Origin: Antedon mediterranea
Taxonomy: Eukaryota > Animalia > Echinodermata
Length of the DNA: 64,000 nt
Direction of reading: 5' to 3'
Assembly (NCBI RefSeq): GCF_964355755.1
Contig: NC_092671.1
Location: forward strand, 3,844,001-3,908,000
The notes under the pieces: generated by a model
Database searches by the model: none
Seen by the model: the letters and a program-made list of their open reading frames with translations, nothing else
Told to the model about the DNA's origin: nothing
Made by a program: the position numbers and the translations under genes
In this document: positions 157-25,289 of the stretch, piece by piece
Layout: every line of letters begins with the position of its first letter
Position numbering within the stretch: position 1 is the stretch's first letter

Positions 157-232
157 ATGTCGTCGCTGCATAAGAAAAAACTAACCCGAGCTAAGGTTGT
201 GGTGCTAGGAAATGAAGGGTGCGGTAAGACAG
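157..232 (+). pseudogene. Orphan duplicate of coding exon 1 of the RERG/RERGL-like GTPase (could be an alternative first exon)
   Basis: ATG at 157 reads MSSLHKKKLTRAKVVVLGNEGCGKT, followed by the donor G|gtaagg. 1-290 is nearly identical to 8193-8460. I found no exons 2-4 before the next exon 1. Confidence 0.75.
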
Positions 233-2102: not shown

Positions 2103-2513
2103 TTAACTTCTCTCTGGCCCGCCTCCTCTTATCCTTACATTTTCAGCTTTCCTCACTTTAACAGCTTTTGTTTTCTTGGCTTTAAACCAGCCATCTGGTA
2201 AATGTTGTTTCTTATTACATGAATGACAAAGTGGTATAATGTAGTAAAATGTGTCTGTATCTGTTTCTCCTCTAATATAAACATGGGCTCCGTCAGTGGG
2301 TTCTTTGTTCCTTCCGTTTTTTGTGTCGCAGTATTCCTCAGTAGGGCATATTTTTGGTTTACTTGTTCTGCCAACGTTTTTTAACCAAAATTGTATCCAG
2401 CTTCCTCCACCGGGAGGCGATTTATCGTGCTGGCCGGTCAAACGTACGTTTTTCACTTCTTCACCAGCTACAATATCTCGTACAGGAAACCGTTCCTCGC
2501 CACCTTCAGCCAT
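2103..2513 (-). CDS. HNH-like Cys/His small protein, paralog 1 (136 aa, intronless)
   Basis: ATG at 2513 (MAEGG...). Motifs VKNV..T, SWIQFW, CPTEEYC, DGAHVY and IIPLCHSCN are shared with six paralogs in the window. Confidence 0.8.
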   Translation of the reverse strand: MAEGGEERFPVRDIVAGEEVKNVRLTGQHDKSPPGGGSWIQFWLKNVGRTSKPKICPTEEYCDTKNGRNKEPTDGAHVYIRGETDTDTFYYIIPLCHSCNKKQHLPDGWFKAKKTKAVKVRKAENVRIRGGGPERS

Positions 2514-3320
2514 ATTCGTCAGATACCCAAAACGGTAGTGTGGAAAAAACCAATACCAATCCAAAAAATAAGCAGTACGATTGCCTGGCTGTCGATTCGC
2601 GAATACAATAATTGTGAAAATATTTCTTGAAGGTTCGATGAGTCCATTATACTTATATATTTTAGGTTTATATCTAAAGGTTTTTGTCGTGATTAGCATT
2701 ATTACATGCGGGGTAAGTGTAAACAATGATAGTTTTGCTGAAAAGAAATATTTTGTGATAGTAGTATTTCATTGTCAAGTTTTTACTACAAAATTTGGTT
2801 AGAATAACATTACGTGTTATACGTTTCACAGTAGGTTCGTTTATATAATAACCGAATTGTGGACATTTGAGTGATTCTTTTTAAAAATGGATTACTATAT
2901 TAGCCTAGACTTCTATTCATTCAAATAATGAAAAATAACTAAAGAACTGGTTTTCAAAAAACTGTATTCTGCCGTCACCTATTTATTTATTATTTTTTTG
3001 CAACGTAAAAACATTCAAAAAATTACATACACATTATACACAAATATTGTTTAATATAATTAGTCGAGTTAAAGCCAGATAAAACAACTATGACGAACCG
3101 TCATCGGGATTCAAACCAGGATCTTCCAATAGTACGCCATGTACGGTAGCCTATTAAATGCCAATGAAAATGAGACACCAGAAATTTAAAAACATTTTGC
3201 TGCGATTATAATAGTCTTTAAAAACTATAAAAAAAACAATACGACGGTTCGCTGATTGAAGTGCAATAATAAGCTTAAAATCATTTTACAAAGAAGCTAA
3301 CTTGCCGAGAATGAGAAGCT

Positions 3321-4226
3321 TCTATATATAAAGTTACGTTAAGGGCAAAATTCGGTAAATCCCGCGTAACTTCTGTAATTTTTACACGATGGTATATAAA
3401 ATTGGTACATACTGTCGATACTGATTTTTAAAACTTACTGAAAACCATTACACTAATTAGGTTAAGTTAGATAATGAGTTATTGGCAATTGAAACGAATT
3501 TAGGTTCAAAGATTTGCCCCAAATAGGAGTGTTTTCCGATCGTGGTATACACACTGTATAATGGATGTCGATGCTGAAAAATACCCGCACACAAGAATAC
3601 GAGGATGCTTCGCATTTATCCTATCTCCTTCAAGTTCTACGATAATTGTTTTTAATAGCTGAAAATAGCTCGAGTACAGAATTATAATGTTGAAGAAAAG
3701 CCGATTTTCTTTAAAAAAAAATACTTTTTATACAAATGTATTGATTTGCGATGAAATCTCTCAGTCTCCCAGTATAATGATTTGGTTTAACACAAGTAGG
3801 TAAAGTTTTGGGCCCTTGGGGAAAAAACTTAAAACCTTTAGATATAGTATTGCAATACTGTACTTTGGCAATACAATACTGAGTGTGGGTATACTCTGTT
3901 ACATATATAAATAAACACATAATATACAAATAAACTTTATTACTGACAGTTGCTTCTCAACGTGTGTATTAATTAATAATCACTATAAAACATGAACAAA
4001 CTATTTCGTTACTGATTGGATAAAGAATATATTTAAAAATTGTTCCTCTTTGTACCCATCCTCTTCACCATCTCTCAATCCTAATGTTACATACAAAACA
4101 CAAATTGGGTTTATTCAAACATTTGGACTAATTTCTTTCTTAACGGTGAAATTACTGTGTATTCGAGAACCATCTGTGGGAACGACCTAGATGGGACACG
4201 AGCGAAGCGAACGTGCCACCATCTAG
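3321..4226 (+). mobile_element. Non-autonomous Helitron, copy A (internally deleted)
   Basis: 5' TCTATATATAAA..AAGGGCAAAATTCGG and a 3' GC hairpin plus CTAG|T. Homologous to 6282-7838, 31880-34230 and 43493-44959. A paralogous empty site lies near 1521-1575. Confidence 0.75.
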
Positions 4227-4269
4227 TACTCTATAATAAAGATAATTACTAATGTTGATCTACTTTGGA

Positions 4270-4605
4270 GCTTTACGTCAGGTGTTGAGTAATTTGTACT
4301 TTATACACTATACATTGAGCATAGTTCCGAATTCGCAAGTAATTCTCGGGTGGGATTCGAACTCACATCACTACTAGCCTGGCGTTCATACCTCTAGACC
4401 ACCGACCTTGCGATGATGGCTAGAGGTTAGATTCGAGCCCAAGTAAACAGTGGGTATTGTTTGTAACTATGTGGAGCAGCTATGCGTCAGAGTGTCGAGT
4501 ATCTGACCAAGAGTTAAGGGCTACTATTTTGAGTGTCACTTTCAATTAACAATGTTCCAAATATTAGTAGTACATTGTAGATTGTGTACCTTCATTGTTT
4601 TAAGT
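4270..4605. repeat. tRNA-derived interspersed repeat (SINE-like); other copies at about 1585-1695 and 13760-14085
   Basis: The minus strand has A/B-box-like TGGTCTAGAGG...GAGTTCGAATCCC. There are three copies in the duplicated blocks and no intact cloverleaf. Confidence 0.55.
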
Positions 4606-4616
4606 TATTCACCTTC

Positions 4617-4967
4617 CTATACTCCGCCACCTCTTCCTGTTATACGGTCGGTTTTCTTCACTTTCACAGCTGTTATATCATTGATTTCAAACCAACCTTC
4701 AGTTTCCCTGTGTTCGTTATTAATGCATGAACGACAAAGTGGTATAATGTAGTAAAATTTGTCTCTATCTGTTTCTCCTTCAATATAAACATGGGCTCCG
4801 TCAGTGGTTTTGTTGTTGCAATCTACAGCAGTGCATGATGTTGGTGGGTAGTCTGCTCCAACGCTATAGACCCAATAGTCAATCCAGCTTCCACCACCGG
4901 TAGGCGATAGATCTTTCGTGGTGACGTTCTTTACTCTTTTACCTTTTGCAATCTGTTTTCTAGCCAT
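4617..4967 (-). CDS. HNH-like Cys/His small protein, paralog 2 (116 aa, intronless)
   Basis: ATG at 4967 (MARKQ...). Motifs VKNVTT, SWIDYW, CTAVDC, DGAHVY and IIPLCRSCI. Confidence 0.8.
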   Translation of the reverse strand: MARKQIAKGKRVKNVTTKDLSPTGGGSWIDYWVYSVGADYPPTSCTAVDCNNKTTDGAHVYIEGETDRDKFYYIIPLCRSCINNEHRETEGWFEINDITAVKVKKTDRITGRGGGV

Positions 4968-6281
4968 ATTTATCAGATAACGAAACGGTAGTGTTGGCCC
5001 TAAACTAGTGTAAACAAAATCCAAAAGGAAGCAGTAACAGTAGTCTACGTTTTTAATTGGAATGATACATGCTGTCGATCGTGCATAGGCCTACACTTAT
5101 AATATTGTGAAGTGAAATGAGTCTATTACTTATGAATGAATGCATTATTATATCCGGGAAGAAGGAAACGCTTCCCTGATTATATACAATAGGTCATGTG
5201 GTGATAAATAATGACTCAAGTTTTGCTGAAAAGAAATCTGTTGTGATAGCAGTATTTCATTGTCAAGTTTTAACAACAAACATTTTGCTTAAAATATATA
5301 TTACGTGTACTTCACAGTAGGTTCATTTATACAATAACCGAATCGTGGGCATATAAATAAACGTACCATCATTAGTTTGATTATGTTTTTGACAAATATA
5401 CAAAACAGGCTAAAAGTAGGCTATTGCTAGCCTACCCGGAAAAATATTACGTTTACAATTTCAACAGACGTGTGATAGGCCTAATTGGAAAATATCTTTA
5501 ATCCACAGTTCTATCTTGTTTTTCAATTATAATGAATTTTGCTTTATTGGGTTTTAAATAATAAATAAAAAAAATATTGTCAAATATAGAGTCAACTGGA
5601 CCTAAATATGTGTATTTGTATACCTTTTTTATTTCAATGTTTACAATATATACATTATGTGAAAGTAGTAGCCTACGATATACGGAATATTAAAAATAAA
5701 AGACATTCTGAGGAGAATGTCGAGGGTGCAATAAATCCACAAACCATGGAATGTAGGCCTACCAATCAGTGTATCACTGGTAGGCCTACTACTGCTACGT
5801 TATAATATTGTTAGAATTTGGAAATTCCCCACATTTTATGGGCATGCATCCGTATGTAGACCGCTAATCAGCATGCCAATCCCTATAGTGTTTTCTTTCA
5901 ATATAGTGTCGTTAGCACGGTGTACAGTTTTATCCAAGTCTTCTTTCTCTATATAACTTTGCTAAATAGCCATTCTTGAATGTCAAATATTATTTATAAA
6001 ATTCTAATCTTAAATTTTGAAATAATTAATTCGATCATGATCAATGTATTCCAATTTTATACTTTTGATTGAAGGATATTTTTGAATTGTAAAAAATATA
6101 CACATCATTTTAGCAAAATAGCCTACAATGATTTCAGGCCTCAATGGTTGTATAAACCAGAAGCTCCTGAAATTAAAAGTGAAACTGATGGAGAAGTGCG
6201 TTTAAAAAATATTATATTATTTTCTGCAGGTCAGGCATATTTTCTCCGTAGCGCCCTCTATAAATTCAACTTCTTGAGACA

Positions 6282-7838
6282 TCTATATATAAATTTACGT
6301 AAGGGCAAAATTCGGTAAATCGCGCCTTACTTCTAGAATTTTTACTTGATGGTATATAAAGTTGGTTCGTACTTTCGGTACTGATTTTAACCACCTGATG
6401 TAACCCTGTTTACTAATTAAATTAAGTTAGATAATTAGTTATTGACGATTAAAATGAATTTAGGTTCAACGATTTGCCCCAAATAGGGGTGTTTTCCGAT
6501 CGTGGTATACACTGTCTAATGGATGTCCATCTTGAAAAATACCCGCCACAAAAATGCGAGGAGGCTTCGCATTTTCCTATCTCCTCCTACGATAATTGTT
6601 TTTAATAGCTGAAAACCGGTTGAACAGTTCGAGTACAGCATCATAATGTTGAAGACAGGCCGATTTTCTTTAAAAAATACTATTTTGATACATTTAATAT
6701 ACGTTTTTACAAATGTATTGATTTGTGATGAATGGAACATTCCAAATTATTTGGTTTAACCATACAGGTATAGATTTAGATTTATGGGCCCCCTCGGAGA
6801 ATAAACATAAATAGTATTGCAACGCTGTACAATACTGTTAAGGTATTTTAATGGTTAAAACCACTTTTGATCGCAATTTGAATCGCAAATTTCTTACTGT
6901 GAGTGTTGGTACTGTTAGATGTAATATAAAAATATATACAAATAAACTTTATTACTGTGAGTGTGGGTAGGCCCTACTGTTAGATTATAAACATATAATA
7001 TACAAATAAACATTCCAAATTATTTGGTTTAACCATAGAGGTATAGATTTAGATTTATGGTCCCCCTTGGAGAATAAACATAAATAGTATTGCAATGCTG
7101 TACAATACTGTTAAGGTATTAACCACTTTTGATCGCAATTTGAATCGCAAATTTCTTACTGTGAGTGTTGGTACTGTTAGATGTAATATAAAAATATATA
7201 CAAATAAACTTTATTACTGTGAGTGTGGGTAGGCCCTACTGTTAGATTATAAACATATAATATACAAATAAATAAACGTTATTACTGACAGTTGCTTCTC
7301 AACGTTTGTATTAATTAATAATTTAAAAATATATAAACGTCGTAGTGGTGTATCGTTACATGTACTTTACTATTTCAATCGACTATGACAGTGAAAGTTT
7401 TAACAAAGTACCGTATTAAATCGTAAATGTTTTACTGTATTTAGTGGTATATTATTTATAGGCCTATAAAACATTAAAAACAATATTTCGTTACTGAGTG
7501 GATAAGAATATATTTTAAAATGTTTCCTCTTTGTACCTATCTTCTTCCCCCATCCCTCAACCCTTAATGTTACATACAAAACACAAATTGGGTTTGTTTA
7601 AATGAGTCCAAATAAAAAAATTTGACTCATTTTGTTTCTCTCTCGGAAGTCATTCCCAGGGTGCTAATTTTGGTTGACTACATAAATAATTGTGTATATT
7701 TATTCGTTTCTGTAAACGACAATGTATTATAGTACATTTGAAATCTCCATTTTTTTCTCGCTGGAAATACTGTGTATTCGAGAACCATCTGTGGGCACGA
7801 CCTAGATGGTACGCGAGCGAAGCGAGCGTGCCATCTAG
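6282..7838 (+). mobile_element. Non-autonomous Helitron, copy B, with an internal ~273 bp tandem duplication (6737-7270)
   Basis: A|TC start, then CTAGATGGTACGCGAGCGAAGCGAGCGTGCCATCTAG|T end. Inserted between A and T with no TSD. Confidence 0.8.
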
Positions 7839-8350
7839 TATCTAATAATTGTACGTGTCTTCAACTTAAGTTATTTTGTTCCCAATCTGTAGATTTGATC
7901 GTGTATTTGTTCATATTTCACTTCAACGATCATAATTTCCATCCCGAATAACAATATGTGATTGTGATATCGATTTTTATCAAGTGGCAGGATGCTATCT
8001 AACTTTAATTTAATTACTAAGAACTTGGCCCGATAATAGTAATGCTGACTGGACTAATCGACAAATTATAAAGTGGACACCGGGATGGATCTGTTGACGT
8101 GATGACATTCTGCTCATCTACTTCCGATTGTTTACATTATAAAACATCTGCTGCTTTCGCCAGTCAACTGAATTATTTTGGTGGACGATGACGCGTCTTG
8201 TGTACTTGTCGGTGCTGCAAATGACACAGCGTATAGTAATGAGTTAGAAATTAAAATATGGCATACATTTTATTCGTTTTTTTGTCTTTCGAGTTAACAG
8301 TGCAATGGTTGATATAATTGAACGTGTGGATTGATACAATACTAGAAAAT

Positions 8351-11300
8351 ATGTCGTCGCTGCATAAGAAAAAACTAACCCGAGCTAAGGTTGTGGTGCT
8401 AGGAAATGAAGGGTGCGGTAAAACAGGTAAGGCCGGATAAGGGTTGGTTTTCATATGGTGTTCATTTGTGACTAAAATTATAACACACATGATTTGACAT
8501 TTTGAATATTTTTACAGTCAGTCTGGGCAGATCTGATTTTTATTTGGAGGAGAGAAGTTCCTCAAAAAGGGGAAGGGAATTATCATTCGAAGACCGAAAT
8601 TGTGTTTAGCCCACATTCAATTTTGATACTGTCATCGTTGGGAATAGAGTAGTACTATAATCGTGTCGGACTAACACATTATTTTGAATTGTATTTACCA
8701 TTATATTGTTACATAATATTTACCATAACTAAACATACGTCATGTTTAAACGTAAATGCTTATATTATATGGTCTCAATTATGATTTGTAATATTCAATT
8801 TAATAGCAATTATTTATATACCAACTATCTAACTGACATACATGGCATAACAATTAAACGTTTAAACATTAAACCTTATTATATGAAGAAAAACAAAATT
8901 ATGTATAAATATTATACTACAAATTAAACTATTGAGCAAATTCTACATCCAAACTGATTTATTACAATAGGTTGCAAATCTAATGCCCGTCTCACGAAAA
9001 ATGTAATACAGGTAAAACCTAACCATGCCCATCACTTTATTTATTCAGTTTATAGGCAAACTGGAGAAATGATATATACCACGGTCAATTTTTAGAAACA
9101 AAGCTAAAGTTCATAAACCAGTTTAATTGTACTTGACGTTTCAACAACACTGCTCGGATTCAATTAACTACCCCACAATCTACTAAACAACTTAACCCAA
9201 TCAAAAGAAAACTAGCTACTATAAACCTTCACAATTTTTAAAAATATTACTTTAATACATAAAATATGTTTACATATAATTTGAGGTACTGTGTAGCCAA
9301 ATTAATGTTTTAACAGATTTATTATATGACGTCATTAGGGTCTAACATTCTGATGAGCTTATAGCCTATATCGCTTGATTTCCTGTTGAAAATTATTTTC
9401 TTTATGCATACTTATACAGGATAGATAAGTTATTGATTTCACTAACTGACCCAAAGAATGTTACTGTTTGAAACAGATTTTTCTAAGTATGGATGAACTA
9501 CCGGTACTGTACGCTGCGCGGTAGCGACACTGACGGGACAAAACCTTATTTGGTATAACACAACAGAACATCTTTCGACTTTTAAAAACTGGCAGCTAGT
9601 TTTATTGTACTAATGACTGTAATACTAGTAAAACTTGATAGATCAAGTAAGTCTTAAAACATTCTTATAATAACCTTAAACAATTCTCACTCCTGAGGAC
9701 GATAAAAGTATATTGATCGAAAGGACGAGGAACTTAACAGTTCTTTTCAGAACTAATCATGGTGTACCGCAACATTTATATCACCTTCAAACAATTATAA
9801 TGTCAAGCACTTTAGAATCAGAGTTGTAACCTCTTTCATTCTTCCAAGTCAGAGTGTACTGAAAGGCTTGTTCACATCACAAAATTAAACATCAAATGTT
9901 GATATTTTGAAGAATCGAAATCATTTCCTCTGTGGGTCAGCTGACAAACATCATTGATTAAAAGTTTTTTTTTTTTTCGCTGCTTCGGCCTCTTTTACAC
10001 AATCGGGTATTCTCAATTTAAGGGCGTGCGTATTGTTGACAACGGAAAACCAACCATCTGTTTCCTCGTGTTTATCTTTATTGCATCCATGACAAAGAGG
10101 AACGATATAGTAAAACGTTTTTGATTCTGGTTCAATATGAATATGGGCTCCATCAGTGGCTCCGTTAGTACATCTATACTTGGCGCAATATTTTGGAAAT
10201 TCTACATTTCGTCGTCTTGGAAATTCTTTTCTAACCTCTTCGATCCATTTTTGTTTCCAAGTACTCCATGGCAGTACATGACAACTGGTAAATTGTGCGT
10301 TTTTTATTCGTTTATCATCAATTATTCGTATGCCTAATATGTTATTTACAGATTGGCTAGGATTAGCCCCACCAGCAGCCATACTCATTAGTTAGTAGTA
10401 CACTATTAGAAAGTGTAGCAAATGTTCAAACCAACTCACACATCCAAATGGCAAGCAGTACGTTTGTAATTGAAATCATCGTCGCGCACAGTTTTTGTAT
10501 TGTATTTGTTATTTTCTAAAATTACAATGGATACAATAATCTGAATTGATTAGTGAACCATGAACCATTCTGTTTATGTAATTTAAAACTTCCAATATGC
10601 ACTCCATTGGTGAGGTTGGGTTTCAACTTCTCCAACAGATTGAAGAACACATCAGTACAAACATAACGTAGTTGAGTATTCTTATCTCATTCTTTAACAA
10701 AAAAATATCAGTAAAAAAACTGAATGGAAAAGCGCAATGCAAAAACATTTTTGAGGGCAAGTTCTTGCTTAAAAATATTGAATTACTATATGAATCTATA
10801 TATGTTATATATGCTTTCATGTGGCAATTAATAATGTATGTTTCTGATTTTATAGCATTTACGGTTCGTCTTCTAACAAAGCGTTTTATCGGAGAATATT
10901 CACAAAACGAAGGTTGGTACATTCCTTATTATCATAGTCATAATACAGATGAATCATTCTCATAATTATTATCATATTAGTTGTAGTTTACGAAATAATA
11001 ATATACGATATAAAATGTGTTCATCAGGAAAGGAATGATTATTAGGCCTATGTATGTTTCCTTACCATTTAAACAACAAAATGAGTTATGACATTTTTAG
11101 TATTATTATCTTTTAATAAGCCTATTTTATTTTTTGTTTAAACTTAATAGCTGAAATGACGTATCGGCAAGCAATGGATTTTGCTGGTGAATGCATAAAT
11201 CTGGAATTACGGGATATTAAATCTGAACTACTGGTTAGTATCCTTGTTTCATTTTAAATTAACAATAATATTTATCAAATTATAGTATATTACAATTATT

Positions 11301-12116
11301 TTATTCCAAGGGTGTATTCAATATGATTTTTATATTTGATATCCGTGTTTGAGAGATATCAAAACCTTTCCCGCCAAATTTTAACTGGACAAGACCATCT
11401 TGGTCCACATAACAATAGGTTTGGTTTCCACTAACACAGCGCGTGAACGTACATGCCACATAGAGCTTGGTTCCCTCATCGGACGCAATGCAACAACGTA
11501 GGCACAACGCATGAATTGACCAACGACAAGCGAGAGTTTCATGATTCATCATCGCGTCGTGATTGGTCAATTGACCAATTGCATTGATTCATAGCCTATG
11601 GAAACCAAGCTATATAAATAATTTACCAATAACATCATTTCTTTAATGTTTCTTTTTAGTTAATAATCTTTATGATTATTTTATATTTTTCATAAAATCA
11701 AGAAAAAAGACGAATCGATTCAACTAGAGTCTGCTATAAAATGGGCCGATGGATTTGTTCTCATATACGCTGTTGATGACAGAGAAAGTTTCAATGCTGT
11801 TTCAGACTTCCGTAAATTCATTGACATTACAAAACGAACTGTAAACACACCAGCTATAATAGTTGGCAACAAAACGGACAGTGTGAACAGAGAAGTTACC
11901 AAAGAAGAAGGCGAGCGTATTTCCGAAAACCTTAAATGTCCATTTTACGAATTGTCTGTAGCCGAAAGCTACGAGGACGTTAAGACGAGTTTTGATGGAA
12001 TTCTCTTAGAGATGAGATCAGAATATTTCAAACATTTAGCGGCTGTGGAAAAGTTTTCTCGAGCAATTCATATGAAACCGTTTAAGTCGACACGGAGTCG
12101 AAGTAAAACAATGTAG
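8351..12116 (+). CDS. RERGL: RERG/RERGL/RASL11-type Ras-family small GTPase (209 aa, 4 coding exons)
   Basis: Exons 8351-8426, 10856-10912, 11151-11233 and 11703-12116, all GT-AG and phase-compatible, total 630 nt. G1 GNEGCGKT, TVRLLTKRFIGEY, WADGFVLIY, G4 GNKTD, G5 ELSVAE. The subfamily is confident; the exact orthologue is less so. Confidence 0.85.
9951..10388 (-). CDS. HNH-like Cys/His small protein, paralog 3 (145 aa), nested antisense in GTPase intron 1
   Basis: Motifs IKNAQFT, TWKQKW, CAKYRC, DGAHIH and IVPLCHGCN. It lies inside intron 8427-10855. Confidence 0.8.
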   Translation of the reverse strand: MSMAAGGANPSQSVNNILGIRIIDDKRIKNAQFTSCHVLPWSTWKQKWIEEVRKEFPRRRNVEFPKYCAKYRCTNGATDGAHIHIEPESKTFYYIVPLCHGCNKDKHEETDGWFSVVNNTHALKLRIPDCVKEAEAAKKKKTFNQ

Positions 12117-12809
12117 CGACATGTTACATCCGATTCAATTCTCTTTGCTGTATCTCCAGATATTATCTCCCCAGTATCAAGGCAAATTCTATAATACAGT
12201 AGTGTGCACATATTAATGGCATGTGTCGGTTGCATAGTTAGGACTTATGCTTATGACATGTGTGATACATCTGACACTGATCACAGAATTTTCCTGATAC
12301 TGAACAAATTACAGATACAGTACCGAGACTCGGCTAGACATAATGCTAATATACATAATAAAGTTAATTATTTATTTTCAAATATCTTGGATGTTTTGTT
12401 TTACAATAAAAATAAAGATTGTTACAAGTAGTGTATTCTTTATTGATAACAACATTTCATTTGTTTACAAGGAAAAGGAATATTGTAAGAATTATAAGAT
12501 CCTCCATACATTGTTATTGGTGAATTTAGTAAAACGTGGTGTGTACGAGAGTGGTGACGTCACTTGGTGATGATGGTAATGGTAATTATAGGGTTCGATG
12601 TTGATGATGATGGTATAAAAATGGTGATGATAACAATAATAATATTAAGCACAGCCTGAAATTACTTCAATATGCCAGAATAATAATATTCAAGTTGTTA
12701 TTACATCTAACATAGAAATGGTGCTTCTTTTTGATCGGTATACAATTACTGGTAATGGATTAGTACAACTGGGTACGGTCCTGTATTGTAAAGAGAAGAG
12801 ATTAAAGTT

Positions 12810-13145
12810 GAAGACCTCGATATTGCTTACAGTAGTATAATGTTAACAGTACCGATTTAAGGTAAAAAATAAAGACCGGTAATTTACACAAGGACACTGT
12901 TTAAAAGGAAAATGGAGACCTCGGTATTACTTGCAGTAGTAGAATGTTGACAGTACCGATTTACGGTAGATAAAGGACAGTCCAGTAATTTACACCTACA
13001 ACAATGTAACTCTGAGAGAAGTTTGACACTTCGATATCACTTGCAGTAGAAGAATGTCCACATGTAAAGTTGATGAAGGACAATCTAGTAATTTACACTA
13101 ATAGGACATTGTAGCTCCGAGGGAAGTTATACACTTAGAATATTC
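12810..13145. repeat. Degenerate ~105-110 bp tandem repeat, paralogous to 18270-18880
   Basis: Recurring CTTGCAGTAG.AGAATG...AGTAATTTACAC units. Confidence 0.6.
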
Positions 13146-13182
13146 CTAGCAGGAATATAATTTCAACAATACACAACACGCC

Positions 13183-13745
13183 TCATTTCGTGGCGTTTGA
13201 ATATTCATTTTCTTTGCTTTCTACTTCTTTGTTGCTTCCTATTTTCTCTATTGATTGTACATATGAATTTTTAGGAACTTTAACAGCTTCCGTACCATGG
13301 GCAACTTGAAAACAATCTTGATATATATTGCATTCATCACAAAGTGGAATAATAAAACATGTGCTTTCATCATAACCATTAATGTAAATATGAGCTACGT
13401 CTTCGTCTACTTTTCAGATTTTCAGATTTCAGATAATATTTATTTAGATAATAATGAATGAATATATACAAAATAGAAAAAAGATATTAAAGTGAACATA
13501 GATAAAGCAGTAATTGGTAGTCATTATTATCATGGATCCCTTCTAGAAGTTAAAAACTTGTCTCGTAGGGACCCACAACAAAACACTTTCATGCGACATC
13601 TAGGGCAGCGGTCTGGAAATTCTTGCTTAGCGTATTTGCACCATGTAGCTTTCCAAGACCCATCAGGTACTTTATCACACGATGTAAAGTGTGCGTTTCT
13701 TACGTCTTGTTCACCGTCAAGTATTTTTACATCAGCATCATCCAT
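13183..13745 (-). pseudogene. HNH-like paralog 4, disrupted by a 176 bp insertion
   Basis: Near-identical to paralog 6 on both sides of an insertion at 13414-13589. The 3' part reads DEDVAHIY...IIPLCDECN...SNATK* (TGA at 13183-13185). The upstream flank is replaced by a repeat from about 13756. Confidence 0.85.
13414..13589 (-). mobile_element. 5'-truncated non-LTR retroposon 3' end (CR1/L2-like)
   Basis: ACTTT duplication at 13409-13413 and 13585-13589. The minus strand has a GGGTCCCT...AGGGATCC stem-loop, AATAAA and an (ATCTGAA)n tail. Confidence 0.7.
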
Positions 13746-14473
13746 ATTTGTTTTACCCTAGTCTGAGGTAATTTGTACTTTATATACTAAGTACATTGAG
13801 AATACGAAAAATTCTTGGGTGGAACTCGAACCCACATCACTACTAGCCTGGCGTTTATATATCTAGACCACTGAGCTTGCGCTGATGGCTAGAGGGTAGA
13901 TTCAGCGGGTACTGCACCAACAGGATTGTAATTGTTTGTAACTATGTGGAGCCGCTTGCGTCAGGGTGTATCTGACCAAGAATAAAGGGCTACCATTTTG
14001 AGTGTCACTTTCAATTCACAATGTTCCAAATATTAGTACCGTAGTAGTAGACAGTTATGTAGATTGTGTACCTTCATTGTTTTAAGAATCCCACTAATTT
14101 TAGATCCGCATACTTTTCTTTGCTTGCTACTTATTCGATTGATTCCTTCTTCGTTGCTTCTTATTTCTAATTCTCAGTATCCAAAAAAGCACTCTAAAAA
14201 TGTGGTATTTATAAAGTAGTAATAGCAATGTTATTAACCAGATAATGTAGAAAGTGCTTGACACATAATGCAGAGCAGAATATAAATTAAAATCCGGTTT
14301 GTTTTATTTACTGACTGAACTGTCGACGTGAATTAGATTTTTAAAAGAAGATGAAAAAGAACAATAAAGTACATATATACGGATCCAATCAACTGATTTT
14401 GATTTGTATACAAGTATCAAGAGTTCTGAGTATAAGACTTCAATAAGCATCACGTGTGACAAAAAAAAACACG

Positions 14474-14839
14474 TTAGCCATTTCCCTCTGCTCCTCCTCT
14501 TACATGTACTTCTCTGGCTTTCTCCACTCTAACAGCTGTTATATTCTCGACTTTAAAATAACCATCTGTGTCACTGTGTTGTTTCTTATTACATGAATGA
14601 CAAAGTGGTATAATGTAGTAAAATTGGTTCCTGTTGTTTCTTATCTTTTTAAGATAAACATGGGCTCCATCCATGGGTTTGTTGTTGCAATCCACAGTAG
14701 GGCATTCTGTTGGTAAATCACTGCCAACTTTTTTGATCCAAAATGTTATCCAGCTAGTGCTACTTGAAGGCGATCTATCGTACGTACCGGTAAAAACTAC
14801 GTTTTTAACTTCCTCACTTTCAATATCCTCTAAATCCAT
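14474..14839 (-). CDS. HNH-like Cys/His small protein, paralog 5 (121 aa, intronless)
   Basis: ATG at 14839 (MDLED...). Motifs VKNVVFT, SWITFW, CPTVDC, DGAHVY and IIPLCHSCN. Confidence 0.8.
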   Translation of the reverse strand: MDLEDIESEEVKNVVFTGTYDRSPSSSTSWITFWIKKVGSDLPTECPTVDCNNKPMDGAHVYLKKIRNNRNQFYYIIPLCHSCNKKQHSDTDGYFKVENITAVRVEKAREVHVRGGAEGNG

Positions 14840-16119
14840 GTTTGTCAACCAAACGGTAGTATTATTATCTTCTTATCAAATCCAAAAGTCAAGTCTAATC
14901 GGAGGCCCACGTTTTAAACTTGAATGTATGCTGTCGATCGTGCATACAATTATATTGTGTGCATTTTGCTCAAAGGTTCAATGACTCTATTATACTTATT
15001 TATTTTAGGATGATGGCAGTTTTTGTCGTGATTAGCATTGTTATATACGTGTGGTGATAAACATCTTTTCAAGTTTTGCTAAAAAGAAATATTGTATGAT
15101 AGTAGTATTTCATTGTCAAGTTTCTACAACAAACATTTTTGTTAAAATATATATTACGTGTATTTGTCACAGTAGGTTCATTTATACAATAACCGAATTG
15201 TGGGCATATAAATAAATTGAATAATTCTTTTAAAATATGGATTACACAATAGCCAGTTTAGTAGAATGATATAGACAGTAATTTTATTCTTTCTTCCTCA
15301 AACTAACTAGAACCTTTTTAGCAAAATGAAGTCGGTGCTTCTATGTCTAGGTCATATACTTGATATGACATAAATTCACAATGCTAATAGATACCCAAAT
15401 TATGGCAATGTTTAAAACGTTTATTTCTCAAATTTCAATTCAATTCATATTTCAGTTTCCAGTGTTTTCAAATCCATGAATGCATTTTAACAGCTACAGC
15501 AATGTATTTTGCTTGAAGTACGAATGTAGAAGGTGAATAGATACCAAGAAACATTTAGGCCCGGAGGTTCTGAATGAAAAGCAAACACAAAATATTGTGC
15601 ACAAATACCACTAGCATGCGTATGCGCAACATAAATGCCTTAGCTAATTATACTGATTGGTTTGCTATTCAGTAGAACTGAGTTATTCCTTGATGGTTAA
15701 TTCTCAGTCTCGGTGCAAAAAAGGATGTGCATTTTTTCAACCACGCTCCATCCAACCTCCCTAATCTGCTTTAAAAACATGTAAGATTAACACACAACTT
15801 AGGCCTACCTACAATCGTATTATAATATTGTTATCTATCATCTATTACAGTAGTTTCGTTCTTACCTTTATATATATATACTGTCTAATCTATCTATCTA
15901 CTATCTATCTAATAAGTGAGATATGCATATAAAAATGATAAAACAAAAACCTCGAAAATGTGAGGCAAGCCATTATGATTCTATATTTTGAAAAACAGAA
16001 GCATAATGGACGTTTGCCTCCCTTTTTTGGGAGATCATGGGTTTGTTGTTCATACTGCATTTATAATATTGTTTCTGTGCTTTTCTGTTTTCACTAATCA
16101 TTTTATTGTGATTTTACAG

Positions 16120-17578
16120 CATTTACAGTTCGTCTTCTAACAAAGCGTTTTATCGGGGAATATTCACAAAACGAAGGTTGGTACATTCCTTTCCTTATGA
16201 AGCTTTTTAGTTTTGGGACGGTAGATCGACGAAGACAATAATTTATACAGAATATTAATCTGTAAAGGGGCGAGCCCTACGCAACGTTCCGTTTATTATC
16301 GGTAATGTATTCCGTCATTCTTATGATACTGTTCCGAAACGAAGACTCACTATTATTATCATCACTAACATGACATTAATAATCATTGGAATCATTGGTA
16401 TTGTCACGACGTCCATTAGTGTTTCGGGTTTTATTACGATCCAGTCTCATCTCTTTATAGCATGCGTATAGCATGCGTTTATCATAGAATGATTAGGCAT
16501 ATAGAAAAGAATGTATTATATATATAACCAGGGACTTCCGTAGTTATACTTCTATTTATAATAATACGTGTTAAGATTAAGAACTAAGTGATACACATTG
16601 TTTATATAATATACTATTGTAGGCCTATGTATATATTTGTTCCATGTGTTTACCTTAGCAGCTGAGATGACGTATCGGCAACCAATGGATTTTGCTGGTG
16701 AGTGGATAAATCTGGAATTACGGGATATCAAATCTGAACTACTGGTTAGTATCCTTGTTTCATTTTAAATTAACAATAATATTTATCGAATATTTAATAG
16801 TAGGCCTAGGCCTATATTACAATGATTGTATTCCAATGGTGTATTTTCCCGCCGAGTTTTAACTGGACAAGTCCATCTTGGCCCACATAACAATACTATA
16901 CGTTTTGTTTTTACTAGTATTTTAGCGCCACACAAAGCTTTTCCCTCCTCTGACGCAACACAACAACGCAGGCGCGGCACAACGCAAGTTATCCACCACC
17001 GCGTCGTGATTGGTCAAATTACATGTGGCGCGCTTACGTTGCGTTGATTCTTAGCTTATGGGAACCAAGCTATAAGTAATTCTACGAATTACATCATTTT
17101 TCTTTTTAGCCATTAATCTTTTTTAAGAATTAATTATTTAATATTTTTCATAAATCAAGAAAAAAGACGAATCGACTCAACTAGAGTCTGCTATAAAATG
17201 GGCCGATGGATTTGTTCTTATATAATCCGCAGATGACAGAGAAAGTTTCAATGCCGTTTCAGACTTTCATAAATTCATTGACATTGCGAAACGAACTGTG
17301 AACACACCAGCGATAATACAGTAGTTGGTAATAAAACGGAGAGTGTGAACAGAGAAGTTACCAAAGAAGAAGGCGAGCGTATTGCCGAAAACCTTAAATG
17401 TCCGTTTTACGAATTGTCTGTAGCCGAAAGCTACGAGAACATTAAAACGAGTTTTGACGGGATTCTCTTAGAGATGAGATCAGAATATTTCAAACATTTA
17501 GCGGCTGTGGAAAAATTTTCTCGAGCAATTAATATTAAACATTGTAAGTCGACACGGAGTCGAAGTAAACCAATGTAG
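16120..17578 (+). pseudogene. RERG/RERGL-like GTPase pseudogene (exons 2-4 only)
   Basis: Exons 16120-16176, 16662-16744 and 17160-17578. TAC>TAA stop at 17223-17225 and a 5 nt CAGTA insertion near 17319-17323. No exon 1 of its own was found. Confidence 0.85.
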
Positions 17579-18269
17579 CGGCACGTTACACCCGCTTCTC
17601 TGTACTGTATCTCCACATATTATCAAGTCCAGTTTCAAGGCAAATTCTATAATACATATGGCGGCTGCTTCATGTTATGGCTTAGTAACTCTTATGACCT
17701 ATGATACAGGCATCACATGCGATATATGTGACACTGTATCAAAGAATTTGCCTATGATACTGATTATATATAGATACAGTACCGAGAATCGGCTACACAT
17801 ACTGCTAATATACATAATAAAGTTGTTAATTATTTATTTTCAAATATCTTGGATGTTCTGTTTTACAATAAAAATAAATAAAGGTTGTTACATGTAGTGT
17901 ATTCTTTATTGATAACATTTAATTTGTTTTACAAGAAAAAGGAATATTATACGAATTATAAGATCCTCCATATATATATTGGTGAATTTAGTGAAACGTG
18001 GTGTGTACGTGTCGTGATGTCATTTGGTGATGATGGTAATGGTAATTATAGGGTTCGATGTTGATGATGACGGTGTAAAATGGTGATGATGATGACAATA
18101 TTAAGCACAGCCTGAAATCACTTCAATATGCCAGAATAGAAATAATAGTCAAGTTGTTATTACATCTATACATAGAAATATTGCTTCTTGATTGGTATAC
18201 AATTATTAGTAATGGATTAGTACAACTGGGTACGGTCCTGTATTGTGAAGGCAAGAGATTAAAGTTGAA

Positions 18270-18880
18270 GACCTCGAAATTGCTTGCAGTAGTTTAATGT
18301 CAACAGTACCGATTCACGGTAAAATTAAAGACGGTCCGGTAATTTACACATGGACAAATGTAACTTAACAGAAAGACGGAGACCTGTATTACTTGCAGTA
18401 GTATAATGTCAACAGTACCGATTTACGGTAAAATTAAAGACGGTCCGGTAATTTACACATGGACAAATGTAACTTAACAGAAAGACGGAGACATGTATTA
18501 CTTGCAGTAGTATAATGTCAACAGTACCGATTTACGGTAAAATTAAAGACAGTCCGGTAATTTACACATGGACAAATTAATGTAACTTAACAGAAAGACG
18601 GAGACCTGTATTACTTGCAGTATACTAGAATGTCGACAGACCAAGATAATTTACACCTACAACAATGTAATTCTGAGAGAAGTTGGACATCATGCAGTAA
18701 TTAGTAGTAGAATATCGACAGTACCGATGTGCAGTAAAGTAGATAAAAGACAGTCCAGTATTTTACACCAGGAAAATGTAACTCCGAGGAACGTTGGACA
18801 CTCGATATTACTTGCAGTAGAAGAATGTCGACATGTAAAGTAGATGAAGGACAGTCCAATTTACACTAGAACATTGCAGC
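18270..18880. repeat. ~109 bp tandem repeat (three near-identical units plus degenerate ones)
   Basis: CTTGCAGTAG recurs at 18283, 18392 and 18501, and the units decay afterwards. Confidence 0.8.
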
Positions 18881-18937
18881 AGGAATATAATTTCACAGTA
18901 TACAACATGTCTCATCTTGAAGAACCAATGGCCTTAT

Positions 18938-19324
18938 TTACTTTGAGGCGTTGGAATATCCATTTCCTTTGCTTTCTACTTCTTTGATCCTTCCTATTTT
19001 TTCTATTGACTGTAAATATGAATGTTTAGGGACTTTAACAGCTTCCGTACCCTGGGCAATTTGAAACCAATCTTGATACATATTACATTCATCACAAAGC
19101 GGTATAATAAAACATGTGCTTTCATCATAACCTTTAACGTAAATATGAGCTACGTCTTCGGCTACTTTCGTGCGACATCTAGGGCAGCGGTCTGGAAATT
19201 CTTGCTCAGCGTATTTGCACCATGTTGCTTTCCAAGACACTTCAGGTGGTTCATCACACGAGGTAAAGTGTGCGTTTCTTACGTCTTGTTCACCGTCAAG
19301 TATTTTTACTTCACCATCATCCAT
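18938..19324 (-). CDS. HNH-like Cys/His small protein, paralog 6 (128 aa, intronless)
   Basis: ATG at 19324 (MDDGEV...). Motifs VRNAHFT, SWKATW, CPRC, DVAHIY and IIPLCDECN. Confidence 0.8.
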   Translation of the reverse strand: MDDGEVKILDGEQDVRNAHFTSCDEPPEVSWKATWCKYAEQEFPDRCPRCRTKVAEDVAHIYVKGYDESTCFIIPLCDECNMYQDWFQIAQGTEAVKVPKHSYLQSIEKIGRIKEVESKGNGYSNASK

Positions 19325-21269
19325 ATTTTGTAACAATAAATGATCACACAAAATAGTAACTAAGAGGTAAGTAAGTTGTAAAAAAAACAAAACACATAAA
19401 TCCAACTGGCAATCAATATGGAATATACACTCATACCAAAGTCTATTCATTCATTCGTTCTTTCATTTGGTCAAAATCAATAAATGAATGATTGCTTTTC
19501 CTTTGAATTTAAATATGAATATCAATATTAATGTTTTTCATCACATCGCATTTCTGTATTGGTTTACAATTATTAATAGTGAATGACAATGGGGTTACCG
19601 TATGGCGATAATACACAACAACGCCTGTTTTGATAACTGACACTTTTTAATTTTCTCGGCTTTAAAATTCATTGGAATAATTGATTTTGTTAGGTTTTCC
19701 AGGTTGTTGTTTTGTTTTTATTCCCAGTTACAAAATGTCTATATGGCCTCGTGGAGTTATCTAAATGCATTGGAATAATTAATTACAATAGTGTGTAGTG
19801 GATTTACGAATCAGTTGGCTAATCGGTCGTCTACATTATAATATAGTATTGATATAAAGGAAAATCTCCTTAAATTAATTATATAACAAGGTGCTTTTTA
19901 GAAATGTATTATTGCAAAATGTTATCTTTTAAATGCATTGTATATAATAGTTGTGTTATATAGTAATATGACATTTGGGTATGAAGGGTCTCAACGCACA
20001 TACAGAGCCAAAATAACATTGTAAACTTGCACAGTGACGTGTATGGCCTCTAACCTAACCTAACCTTACGATCTTTTCATTTTTTCATGTTATCATTCTA
20101 AATATCTTATTTTCAAATTCTTTTGCATTCTTTTATTCATCTTTATTCATTTATTTCTTGGTGAAAAGGAGGGTATTTGATAGTCCTCCCCTGAGTTTAT
20201 TATAAGAGAATATAACAATGACCACTGTCATGAACGATTTTAATAAATTTTTATCGTCTTTTTATTACCATTTTGTTATTTATAAATTTTAATTAATTTT
20301 ATCATTGTAAATGAAGGCAAATTTGGTGTATGACATCGAAATCAATCATCTTATGTATATATAAGCATCACTGATATTTTGATAAGCATATATTTATTTA
20401 TTTTAACTACTTTAAACACTGTAACATAATAACGACATACAAATGCAAATAACGCCTCATGTTACGAAGCTTTCATTCGACACACGTGGTGTTAATTCGT
20501 GAAAAAAAAGAGACTAAGAACAGAAATTCAAGAGTTCTACTATCACAATTATTATTTAATTCCGCTTAAACACCATAAATGATTGAGACAAACAATAACA
20601 ATGGACGTATATTCAAATGTTATTGGAAAAAGATGATGTCATGGAATCAAAACAATGCTGTTAGTGCTATCCCGATCAAGGTCTTGGGTTAAGTTGTACT
20701 ACGTCACCAACTGTAGTTGTCTGAATATTACATCACAGTTTAATATAATACAAATAGATAATAACAGTAAAGTGTATGATATACCAAAACCAAAGAAGTT
20801 TTAAAATCATATTTAAAATCAAAAGAAGCAGCCATATGATGATATTTTGTAAAATGAAACATTTAACATTCAATTTAGAAATACTTAATACATTGTAACC
20901 AGTAAATAATCTAAATAACCGTAATATCCAAACAAACATACAAGCGATCTTCAATACAAATTTTACTGTTTTACAAAAGTTCTGCGAAAAATGATAATGT
21001 TGTTGAACCGACCAGAGTGTTACTGCTCTCTTTACTCTATCACCTCTTATCAGGTGTTTTACTTACAATCAGTCATGATAATTACAACAAATTCGATCAA
21101 ATTTAAAGCAAACTGCAAATGACAAGCAGTCGAACACAACATTGCAAATAAGTTGAACTGAAGCATTATACAGCATTGCTATAAATACATTAAAAACAAA
21201 TATTTGAAGCTTTCTTCTGAGTAGACGTCTGTGGTTCTTTACTGACAAAATGCTAATTCCCCAAGGTAG

Positions 21270-21440
21270 ACCGGTCTTAGGGACGACAGAGAACAGTAGT
21301 GAGGTGCTGAAATGTTGGTGTCCGAGTGACAAGACGTGCAGCACTATTCATTAGTAGTTGAAGTCTTATAGATGTTTGAGACATGCATTCGTAGAAAACT
21401 CCATTGCAATAGTCCAATCTGGATGAGTTCGCATTCATTG
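21270..21440 (-). mobile_element. Decayed L2-type LINE fragment (C-terminal part of ORF2)
   Basis: Minus-strand translation SSRLDYCNGVFY...RLQLLMNSAARLVTRT matches the L2 motif SRLDYCN...LQxxQNxAARL. Confidence 0.7.
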
Positions 21441-21526
21441 GTTAAATGGAACTATCCATAATTCATTTGTGTGGTTAGAAATAATGGTAATTATGATGAA
21501 TCTAACCAGTTTTTCTTCGTTGCTTC

Positions 21527-21865
21527 CTACTTCTTTGTTTTTTCACAGTCCTTTCTTGGCACTTTAACAGCTTTCGTACCGTTAACAACTCGAAACCAAC
21601 CTGAAACCCTCCTACTGCATTTATGACAAAGCGGTATAGTGTGCAGGTAATCATTATCAGTATATTGAACTTCAACATGGGCTCCGTCAGTGGGTTCCTC
21701 CGTGCCACCAAACCTAGCGCAGTGTCCTGGAAAATCTCTTGCTACGTGTTTGCACCATGTTGATTTCCAAGACCCATCGGGCGAATTATCACACCAGGTA
21801 GACGATGCGTTTTTTACTTTGCTATCACCAGGTATTGATATTATGGTAAAATTTGTATTAGGCAT
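21527..21865 (-). CDS. HNH-like Cys/His small protein, paralog 7 (112 aa, intronless)
   Basis: ATG at 21865 (MPNTN...). Motifs VKNASST, SWKSTW, CARFGG (second Cys lost), DGAHVE and TIPLCHKCS. Confidence 0.75.
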   Translation of the reverse strand: MPNTNFTIISIPGDSKVKNASSTWCDNSPDGSWKSTWCKHVARDFPGHCARFGGTEEPTDGAHVEVQYTDNDYLHTIPLCHKCSRRVSGWFRVVNGTKAVKVPRKDCEKTKK

Positions 21866-23729: not shown

Positions 23730-25289
23730 TTAAGGCATACATGTCTCACTTTTAAAACTACAGGCACAATGAGAAAATGCCGCCTTATAATAACAACAAG
23801 CTTTCTTAAAGTCACATATCTTTTCATGTAGCTCTGCATTTTTTAGCATAGATGCTACTTTATTTTGACCTTGCAAACTTTCGATTTCAAAACATCTTTT
23901 TAAGTACTTAATAATCACATCAACCTCACTCTCTTGCTCATCTATGAATTCGATGGATCCATTTCCACTGTTCTTTACGAATGACTGAAGAGCAATATCT
24001 AAACAATCTTGTTTTCTGGACACTGCATCGTTAAATTGTTTTCTCAATATAAGATAATATGAATAGTCTCGGTTTGCGTCAAACAATACAAATGGATCGT
24101 GTTTAAAATCAGATAATATACTTTTATAAACAGCAGTCACAGCCTCATGGTCTTCCAAAAAAGCCAAGACACGTGCCTTCGATAGTTTGGCTCTGGCATA
24201 ATATGGGTCCAGTCTAATTACATTGTCAAGACACTTCAATTGGTTGTTTGCGTCGTTCATTCTCCGGTAAAGAAGCGCCTCTTGAAAAACGATACGCGAT
24301 GATTCATTGCAATTTTGCTTCGCATATTCAATAACTTTACGAGCTTCTTCAAAGTATATTGAATCTTTAGGCTCACTGCAATTCTTCTTGTTTCCTTCCA
24401 CTCTTCTGCATCTACAAACACCCATTTGGATATAACAGTTAGCTATGCGACTTAATATGGCTGGTCCAAAAGCGTTTTGTTTTGCTTCCGTGAGTAGCTT
24501 CATTATTTGTTGTACACGAGAATCATCCTCATCTTCAAATACAAGACTGTGGCCAACATCTTGTTCGGATGATGTACGGTTCATAACCTCTTGTTCATAT
24601 TTTCTTCTGTGTATATCAGCTAGTATCGTCTTGGCATAGGCATGATCAGCATCTAGTTGCAAGACGTTCTTCATGATTTCTTTAACACCCTTCATTCCAT
24701 CAGACCCCTGGGACTTATGCATATTTAATTTTTTTCTTCGCCATGTTATGAGTCCAAGCATAAACCTCCACTCGACATTTTCTGGGCATTTCTCTGTTGC
24801 TAGTTTGAGCTCAGTCTCACTTTCTTCGTACCTAGAAAATAACAACATAGACAGCGCGAAGCCTTTAGTCGCATGAACACTTGCTTGAAACTTGTTTTTG
24901 TCCTCTTCTTCCATATCCTGATATGTTGTAAGCAGATATTTGAGTTCTTTGTAGATGATTTCCTGTTCTATTTGATTAGTCGTAAACCAACACTTTAATG
25001 CCAAATGTATTGATTTATAACCATCTTTGATTGATTCAGTTGTATCTAAGTCTGTTATGGCCCAAAATGCTTCCTCATTTTTTTCTTTCGCTTTTGCAAT
25101 ATCCTTCTTATCGTTTCCATTAAAATCTGACATGTATAAGTAGCTTTCGAATAAAAGAGCTTCTATGACGAACGATTTCTTATCCTCCTGGTGTTCAATA
25201 GATTGTTTTAAGGATTTAAATGATTGACTTCTATTTTCAAGTTCCCAATTAGCATGAAAGTTAATATCTTGTAAATTCATCGGTTCCAT
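23730..25289 (-). CDS. IFIT/TTC22-like tetratricopeptide repeat protein (519 aa, single coding exon)
   Basis: Long uninterrupted ORF with ATG at 25289, just after an acceptor (ttttcttttggcag, ~25316). N-terminal FHANWEL resembles IFIT CHFTWNL. KGFAL..RYEESETELKLATEKCPENVEW and VLQLDADHAYAKTILA resemble IFIT TPRs. Further TPR-like units include CLDNVIRLDPYYARAKLSKA. Confidence 0.75.
   Translation of the reverse strand: MEPMNLQDINFHANWELENRSQSFKSLKQSIEHQEDKKSFVIEALLFESYLYMSDFNGNDKKDIAKAKEKNEEAFWAITDLDTTESIKDGYKSIHLALKCWFTTNQIEQEIIYKELKYLLTTYQDMEEEDKNKFQASVHATKGFALSMLLFSRYEESETELKLATEKCPENVEWRFMLGLITWRRKKLNMHKSQGSDGMKGVKEIMKNVLQLDADHAYAKTILADIHRRKYEQEVMNRTSSEQDVGHSLVFEDEDDSRVQQIMKLLTEAKQNAFGPAILSRIANCYIQMGVCRCRRVEGNKKNCSEPKDSIYFEEARKVIEYAKQNCNESSRIVFQEALLYRRMNDANNQLKCLDNVIRLDPYYARAKLSKARVLAFLEDHEAVTAVYKSILSDFKHDPFVLFDANRDYSYYLILRKQFNDAVSRKQDCLDIALQSFVKNSGNGSIEFIDEQESEVDVIIKYLKRCFEIESLQGQNKVASMLKNAELHEKICDFKKACCYYKAAFSHCACSFKSETCMP

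Follow-up and report, generated by a model that had tools for sequence, protein, structure and literature searches.

A Tandem Cluster of Small HNH-Like Genes in the Crinoid Antedon mediterranea and Its Relatives in Bacteria and Other Eukaryotes

We have analysed a stretch of 64,000 nucleotides from the crinoid Antedon mediterranea (NCBI RefSeq assembly GCF_964355755.1, contig NC_092671.1, positions 3,844,001 to 3,908,000, forward strand), hereafter called the window and numbered from its first letter, which holds on its minus strand, between positions 2103 and 21865, a cluster of small genes resembling HNH nucleases. By sequence comparison these host genes belong to an unannotated and unclassified family with bacterial and eukaryotic members, which we file as HNH-like and outside every Pfam HNH family. 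The products of these tandem-duplicated genes, small zinc-finger, HNH-like proteins, may be fast-evolving stand-alone nuclease-like defence effectors, a reading in which we place even confidence. The analysis establishes the anatomy of the genes, their integration in the host genome, the breadth of the family, its conserved residues, the neighbourhood of its bacterial members and the heterogeneity of rates among sites; the fold class, metal binding, cutting and immune role of the proteins are inferences.

The Gene Cluster and Its Integration in the Host Genome

A scan of the window for the pattern AH[VI]-x(8-25)-PLC-x2-C returns seven occurrences, all of them on the minus strand and inside 2103-21865, against none in 100 base-shuffled windows, and a search of the window with the family profile adds no other copy to these. 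All copies are co-oriented within about 20 kb, the remaining 42 kb being free of them. The initial annotation had counted seven intronless genes; seven motif copies do exist, but only six of them (g1, g2, g3, g5, g6 and g7) are intact single-exon open reading frames (ORFs), with a mutual identity of 33-51% that bears out the high divergence it had noted. The first, g1 (2103..2513), encodes 136 amino acids (aa) from the aligned Met, keeps the His and the helix Asn discussed below, and has an alternative ORF of 198 aa that starts at an upstream ATG. It is followed by g2 (4617..4967; 116 aa), in which CxxC-I-N-N replaces CxxC-N, and by g3 (9951..10388; 145 aa), which lies antisense within intron 1 of a Ras-family gene. 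Further along come g5 (14474..14839; 121 aa), the query for both structure models presented below, g6 (18938..19324), of 128 aa or of 170 aa from an upstream ATG, which carries DVAH at the His motif, and g7 (21527..21865), an intact ORF of 112 aa in which a zinc Cys and the Asn of the helix are missing. The motif set described as common to the cluster is thus shared only in part: g7 is without the second Cys of the first pair (C51 in g5 numbering) and has Ser at the final Asn position, where g2 has Ile. Judged from these residues, g7 is likely to be catalytically degenerate. Sixteen columns are invariant among the window paralogs, and a simple Kyte-Doolittle hydropathy analysis finds no hydrophobic N-terminus or membrane segment in any copy, in agreement with the absence of a signal peptide that had been noted.

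The remaining copy, g4 (13183..13745), is a broken, recent duplicate of g6, 82-85% identical to it across its two pieces, which are separated on the minus strand by an AT-rich insert of 176 nt (13411..13586; 27% GC) bringing stops and a frame change. The possibility that this insert is an intron was considered and ruled out, for its ends are GT..AA, with no terminal AG, rather than GT-AG; a contig of the sequencing run X1, described below, runs unspliced into it.

Plus-strand exons of Ras-family genes, passed over in the initial annotation, interleave with this minus-strand cluster. The main one is a spliced Ras-family GTPase gene (8351..12116, plus strand; exons 8351-8426, 10856-10912, 11151-11234 and ~11703-12116), presumably RERG-like, which matches Pfam Ras at E 7e-16 and whose splice sites agree with GT..AG joints in X1. 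A duplicate of its first exon lies at 157..232 on the same strand (90% identical to 8193-8470), while a second gene body (16120..17578, plus strand), damaged by a stop and a frameshift in its last exon, forms part of a ~5.5-kb duplication that also produced g4 and g6. X1 joins the first exon 8351-8426 to either gene body (8424>10854 and 8422>16116). From one copy to another the flanking DNA aligns at 70-80% (11135-13062 with 16647-18523 and 1681-2905 with 14069-15254 are examples), and hence the duplication was local and in tandem, with Ras exons and host flanks copied along with the HNH-like genes. The cluster arose by local expansion, as had been proposed, the synonymous divergence (dS) among its copies being 0.34-1.0.

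Since they are interleaved with spliced Ras-family genes, the HNH-like genes are integrated in the host genome. Bacterial contamination or mis-assembly, which the intronless structure and the many bacterial relatives might suggest, is in practice excluded: g3 sits within a GT-AG intron across which RNA contigs are joined, two DNA-type runs of one sample cover the unique parts evenly and with near-identical contigs, and the GC content at third codon positions (GC3) of the cluster genes, 0.26-0.34, fits that of the neighbouring TPR gene, 0.33.

Family Breadth and Taxonomic Spread

Searched against 1.84 billion representatives, a profile of the six proteins matches 1,349 clusters, defined at 50% identity, at E<=0.001, of which 110 reach E<=1e-10, and no model in Pfam, NCBIfam, PHROG or PADLOC names the family. 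The soft coral Dendronephthya gigantea supplies the best match, an uncharacterised protein with two domains (XP_028414996.1), and a EukProt record comes second. Only two of the 30 top matches that were looked up have an informative source name, 28 being unnamed or 'hypothetical', so that the eukaryotic spread is thinly documented. On the bacterial side, a subfamily pattern run on GTDB genomes gave 127 stretches, of which 118 were confirmed, in many phyla, with 80 loci kept; together with plasmid-borne copies, they establish that the bacterial proteins of ~100 aa mentioned in the initial annotation do exist. The Atlas returns three unnamed clusters at 0.95, two of which are bacterial, whereas no named family passes its bar (HNH stands at 0.75); the third cluster has 534 members, 43% of them bacterial, and its most frequent known phylum is Nucleocytoviricota, which is the sole basis for a link with giant viruses. 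Viral-contig loci for the family number only three, and a viral-contig scan with the relative P0148 gave no locus. Word-indexed searches for homologs had little sensitivity, giving 1 and 10 matches, and metagenome scans contained two weak loci with window-like patterns.

Diverse architectures occur among the relatives. P0007, P0011 and P0153 are 259-aa fusions of the family domain to an N-terminal domain of ~160 aa that has no Pfam match and is presumably GIY-YIG-like, and in maximum-likelihood trees these fusions group with g1, g2 and g5; the metagenome scans left P0007 and P0011 unplaced, and in a set of 401 genomes P0007 is represented only by its C-terminal domain, in one genome. Tandem versions with two or three domains (P0002, P0005, P0006, P0016, P0018, P0038, P0053, P0080, P0130, P0141 and P0143) may point to action as dimers. 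The bacterial subfamily L009-L064 (e.g. L010:1273-1590) carries an extra C-x-C-x2-W-x2-H-W and a C-terminal TC, which may form a second zinc site. A literature search of listings and abstract openings, conducted also by accession, found no description of the family, some members of which could be listed in the supplement of PMC5714182.

Conserved Residues and Predicted Fold

Across 138 sequences the near-invariant positions, in g5 numbering, are N13, T/S17, W30, W34, C46, C51, G58, H60, I76, P78, C80, C/H83 and N84, with conservation of 100% for C80, 99% for H60 and P78, 98% for C46, 97% for C51 and C/H83, and 95% for N84. All seven window copies possess H60; the helix position 84, occupied by Asn in 95% and by His in 2% of the family, is Asn in four of the six intact window genes. 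The AlphaFold2 model of g5 has a pLDDT of 85 and that of the core 90; both predict strands at 57-63 and 73-79 followed by a helix at 81-85, all three blocks having pLDDT 86-97 in the g5 model. The modelled g5 protein thus contains the beta-beta-alpha hairpin and short helix of a His-Me finger, as well as a treble-clef layout in which a zinc knuckle before the hairpin and two ligands at the helix start would hold zinc. As defined in PMC5714182, the His-Me finger core consists of a hairpin and a helix, with a His ending strand 1 and an Asn or His in the first helix turn, the helix Asn being mostly the sole direct metal ligand. Because the superfamily is defined by this core in the same source, the lack of the loop Asn of HNH nucleases excludes the canonical HNH motif and not membership of the superfamily.

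Comparison of family profiles leads in the same direction. Aligned by hhalign with 29 Pfam-HNH domains, the family reaches a probability of 55.5% (pairwise E 1.2e-4, 41 columns), in a register that sets its His on the HNH His and CxxCN on CxxCN, against 4% for HNH_2 and 0.15-1.2% for the controls DksA, Zn_ribbon_recom and Zn_ribbon_8. A VIA-align comparison of the core model with 48,161 chains gives 13 rows at Z>=2; HNH nucleases account for five of them (two IscB, GVE2 HNH, McrA and Gme HNH) and have the longest alignments, which span 57-60 of the 70 residues; the scan with the full g5 model has one HNH row among six, at Z 2.2. At E<=0.001, Foldseek finds no match in the PDB, for the full or the core model, or in BFVD, and HNH chains are absent among the Foldseek matches listed. 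None of the six window proteins reaches the cut-off of Pfam HNH PF01844, HNH_2, HNH_5, DUF968 or Endonuclease_7; the best Pfam values across the 138 members are E 0.0065 for HNH (two members) and 0.0088 for DUF968, and the sub-threshold library matches lean towards HNH, including IscB, PtuB, DUF968 and three of seven PHROG families. For the HNH layout seen in the initial annotation, the support given by the profile match, the sub-threshold matches and the structural rows is convergent, though weak. The HNH reading is likely, and we regard HNH ancestry of the family as quite probable while leaning, with less assurance, towards retained catalysis. A deaminase fold, the motif of which is HxE..PCxxC, was ruled out, there being no Glu and the His lying in a strand.

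Bacterial Members and Their Neighbours

In bacteria the family gene is rare, being carried, the seed included, by four of 401 genomes of the phylum to which locus L025 belongs, and it lies beside defence genes. Among its immediate neighbours of at least 80 aa, 23 of 119 match a PADLOC model at E<=1e-10, compared with 1 of 85 control neighbours, those of the core genes for DksA and Zn_ribbon_8 (Fisher p 3e-5). The matches include type I and II restriction-modification, GmrSD/HEC-05, Cas9, ThsB and a patatin effector, as well as AbiLi, PtuA, TmtA, PD-Lambda-4, RdrB and others. A strict recount, in which seven generic matches (reverse transcriptase, two ankyrin, rRNA methylase and three helix-turn-helix) were scored as misses and three near-duplicate loci were dropped, leaves 13 of 116 (p 0.005). 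This combination of rarity and defence-gene company is a new finding of our analysis. PADLOC models match the family members themselves at a best E of 2e-4, with no model matching more than three of the 138.

Other features were observed at these loci. Some bear integrases or transposases; L071, L072, L076 and L083 share, adjoining the family gene, a recurring divergent three-gene block of a sigma-like protein, a small protein and an ImmA/IrrE-type metalloprotease, and in six other loci DUF2188 lies directly upstream.

Origin

In a FastTree phylogeny of 282 domains the six window proteins form a clade (0.934), which sits in a group of 122 tips together with coral and EukProt proteins and one named bacterial locus. 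An IQ-TREE analysis of 57 chosen rows splits window and named eukaryotic proteins from 20 named bacteria (84/90), leaving the window proteins outside the branch that holds 19 of those 20; the unnamed fusion proteins P0007 and P0011 group with g1, g2 and g5 at 96/88. The 106 columns, and the drawing of the named bacteria from one subfamily pattern, limit this test of origin. The approximately unbiased (AU) test does not reject a single clade formed by the six (p-AU 0.49); it rejects, though only at the borderline, their grouping as sister to the coral domains (p-AU 0.047), and it rejects a sister relation to one named alphaproteobacterial gene (p-AU 0.001). The tree placement, the AU tests and the host-like GC3 lend no support to a recent transfer from the sampled bacteria, nor is the earlier suggestion that this lineage acquired the genes horizontally from bacteria supported, the two best profile matches being from a soft coral and from EukProt. 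An old eukaryotic branch with patchy retention is possible, and so is repeated transfer by way of giant viruses or unsampled microbes.

Selection and Transcription

The window paralogs have pairwise nonsynonymous divergence (dN) of 0.40-0.82, close to their dS of 0.34-1.0. Codon site models of the six paralogs place ~40% of sites at omega (dN/dS) 0.1-0.25, and a class with omega>1 improves the fit in two 83-codon alignments (M1a vs M2a, p 0.006 and 0.001; M8a vs M8, p 0.001 and 0.002) and over the 73 columns agreed by three alignments (p 0.0096; one null simulation in 46 reached so high a value). The size of this class is unstable, ranging over 13-55% of sites with omega 2-5.5. That a constrained core coexists in the paralogs with other sites at omega ~2 or higher is a second new finding, and the codon data give moderate evidence for diversifying selection atop relaxed constraint.

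Evidence of transcription comes from X1, a run which has no record as RNA and which we treated as RNA on account of its GT..AG joints; its contigs carry neither strand nor expression level. Because such joints cross the introns of the Ras-family genes, including 8424>10854, which spans g3, X1 contains spliced RNA. Its contigs cover g1 (2221-2938), g2 (~4540-5090) and g6 (18593-19206 and 19227-19514), as well as g4 in its 3' part and g5 and g7 at their 3' ends; g3 and the 5' part of g5 have little or none, and no minus-strand splice joints occur at g3-g7, neither of which we take as evidence in either direction. No plus-strand exon was found near g1 or g2, so that transcription of these two genes is likely, as judged from the single run X1 and its presumed RNA status. 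A 911-nt contig of X1 fuses the 3' part of g7 (21603) to Ras intron sequence (11391), which hints at another haplotype of the duplication or at an extra copy in that individual.

Proposed Function and Alternative Explanations

How might these proteins work, if they are indeed nuclease-like defence effectors? The Cys pairs C46/C51 and C80/C83 would hold one structural zinc in a treble-clef layout; H60, which ends the first hairpin strand, would activate water, and N84, where the short helix begins, would bind a single catalytic metal. The N13/T17 segment and the W30/W34 helix would likely make up for the absent loop Asn in stabilising the finger, and would also shape the binding of substrate. 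Such proteins of ~100 residues would work alone inside the cell against invading DNA or RNA, and conflict with viruses or their inhibitors would account for a conserved core amid fast-changing other sites, with g7, and perhaps g2, as weakened or decoy copies. A broader proposition, which we consider less likely than not, is that of a cross-kingdom family of minimal HNH-variant nucleases, its active site devoid of the loop Asn, serving as a one-gene anti-phage system in bacteria and, expanded into rapidly diversifying arrays, as antiviral effectors in invertebrates.

A number of observations weigh against defence effectors of nuclease type. In the putative active site, two of the six intact paralogs, g2 and g7, lack N84, the position of the HNH loop Asn is Tyr in 64% and Phe in 28% of sequences (92% together), the residue preceding the His is Ala (76%), Gly (14%) or Ser (6%) and not D/E/H, no conserved polar residue occurs at +4/+8 past N84, and the predicted helix has only ~5 residues. 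All scores of the structural comparison lie within the noise: the HNH rows, with Z 2.1-2.6 and an rmsd of 4.1-4.9 A, are tied with rows for Lsr2, a ClpG zinc finger and thymidine kinase. As to the bacterial loci, the comparison with core genes indicates that the family gene resides in variable or defence-rich regions but does not demonstrate its function, and there is no fixed partner gene, the largest neighbour cluster occurring in 8 of 82 loci. X1 cover at g4 and g6 may be antisense 3' UTR of Ras. The test for selection, run on six sequences with code of our own, leaves alignment error, multi-base changes and gene conversion out of its model; moreover, overall omega is ~0.8 and, among at least 18 X1 differences, some of which may stem from other paralogs, 13 of the 18 listed in g1, g5 and g6 are non-synonymous, near the neutral expectation, so that relaxed selection explains much of the divergence.

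Several of these points favour a treble-clef zinc finger without catalysis, whether or not of HNH descent, that would bind nucleic acid or protein as a sensor, a decoy or an adaptor; Smad MH1, a dead His-Me finger, offers a parallel. The absent loop Asn, the want of an acidic or His ligand ahead of the His, the short helix, the two paralogs without N84 and the non-nuclease zinc fingers among the top structural rows would all suit such a role, as would the relatives built of two or three tandem domains, an arrangement often met in binding modules. We nevertheless hold it to be rather unlikely, since H60 and N84 are kept in 99% and 95% of the 138 sequences even though four Cys suffice for zinc, the known dead groups lose the His according to PMC5714182, and the HNH profile match exceeds its controls. 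Alternatively, the proteins could be nuclease-like with no immune role, the copies and their divergence reflecting birth and death under relaxed selection in an unstable, repeat-rich tandem region, where the adjacent Ras and TPR genes are likewise duplicated and damaged, g4 is broken, g7 is degenerate and pairwise dN is near dS. This account is distinctly improbable in our judgement: ~40% of sites are held at omega 0.13-0.24, six frames remain open at dS up to 1.0, the omega>1 class betters the fit on three column sets and the bacterial relatives adjoin defence genes. A selfish element, namely a self-copying homing-type endonuclease or a transposon ORF, might be evoked by the frequency of HNH domains in homing endonucleases, by the integrases and transposases at some bacterial loci and by the position of three copies in or between Ras exons. 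It is very improbable, for the copies were duplicated jointly with host flanks and Ras exons, they form one co-oriented 20-kb cluster with the other 42 kb of the window empty, and no transposase or reverse transcriptase ORF is attached to them.

Other Features of the Window

Next to the cluster lies an intronless, TPR-rich ORF of 519 aa (23730..25289, minus strand), a shortened copy of crinoid proteins of 829-870 aa, whose nearest named relatives are from Antedon mediterranea (57%) and Anneissia japonica (38%) and which may resemble IFIT-type proteins; the C-terminal ~300 aa of the longer crinoid proteins have no clear Pfam match. An apparently intact LINE, presumably of CR1/L2 type, occupies 58458-62940 (plus strand), with a 267-aa ORF1 weakly matching Transposase_22 followed by a 996-aa ORF2 for endonuclease and reverse transcriptase. 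ORF fragments at 36805-37862 (plus strand) bear the motifs DGCAGQYKN and HGKSECDG, and are in our assumption a decayed DNA transposase; the piece tested has no Pfam match. Tandem repeat arrays are found at 48671-50323 (~150-nt period), 29704-30191 (100-120 nt) and 18279-18833 (109 nt).

Relation to Known Systems and Significance

The closest known proteins are the zinc-knuckle HNH nucleases of group 1 (PF01844; McrA, GVE2 HNH 5h0o, Gme HNH 4h9d and the IscB HNH), which share with our family the Cys pair, the His ending strand 1, the hairpin and CxxC-N at the helix start. Unlike them, the window family has Tyr/Phe for the loop Asn, Ala before the His and a very short helix, and carries in addition a conserved N-terminal N-x3-T and W-x3-W helix as well as a pair of strands at the C-terminus. 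DUF968/YbcO (PF06147), which is group 7 in PMC5714182, likewise comprises small stand-alone C..C..H..PLC..C proteins with weak cross-matches to the family, but has HH and a final His where the window family has AH and Asn, and occurs in prophage context, whereas our family has only the three viral-contig loci mentioned above. With Septu PtuB and stand-alone anti-phage HNH effectors the family has in common weak PtuB matches (E 0.002-0.006) and defence-rich neighbourhoods, and at one locus a PtuA-like ATPase adjoins the family gene; it differs in having no fixed ATPase or other partner (82 loci) and in having eukaryotic members. Among animal proteins, DFF40/CAD, EndoG, ZRANB3, Smad MH1 and teneurin Tox-GHH are multi-domain. 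They too possess a domain of His-Me type, as listed in Table 1 of PMC5714182, whereas the window genes encode stand-alone tandem paralogs of 112-145 aa that diverge rapidly; we saw no Pfam match of the window family to those animal families.

Even if the nuclease reading were false, this would still be an unannotated, fast-evolving zinc-finger family. If a nuclease or defence role were true, an additional group of His-Me fingers would be recognised, along with a candidate class of antiviral effectors for crinoids and corals. How bacterial defence genes relate to animal immunity is being actively studied, and these genes would then contribute to that field a new kind of defence enzyme common to bacteria and animals.

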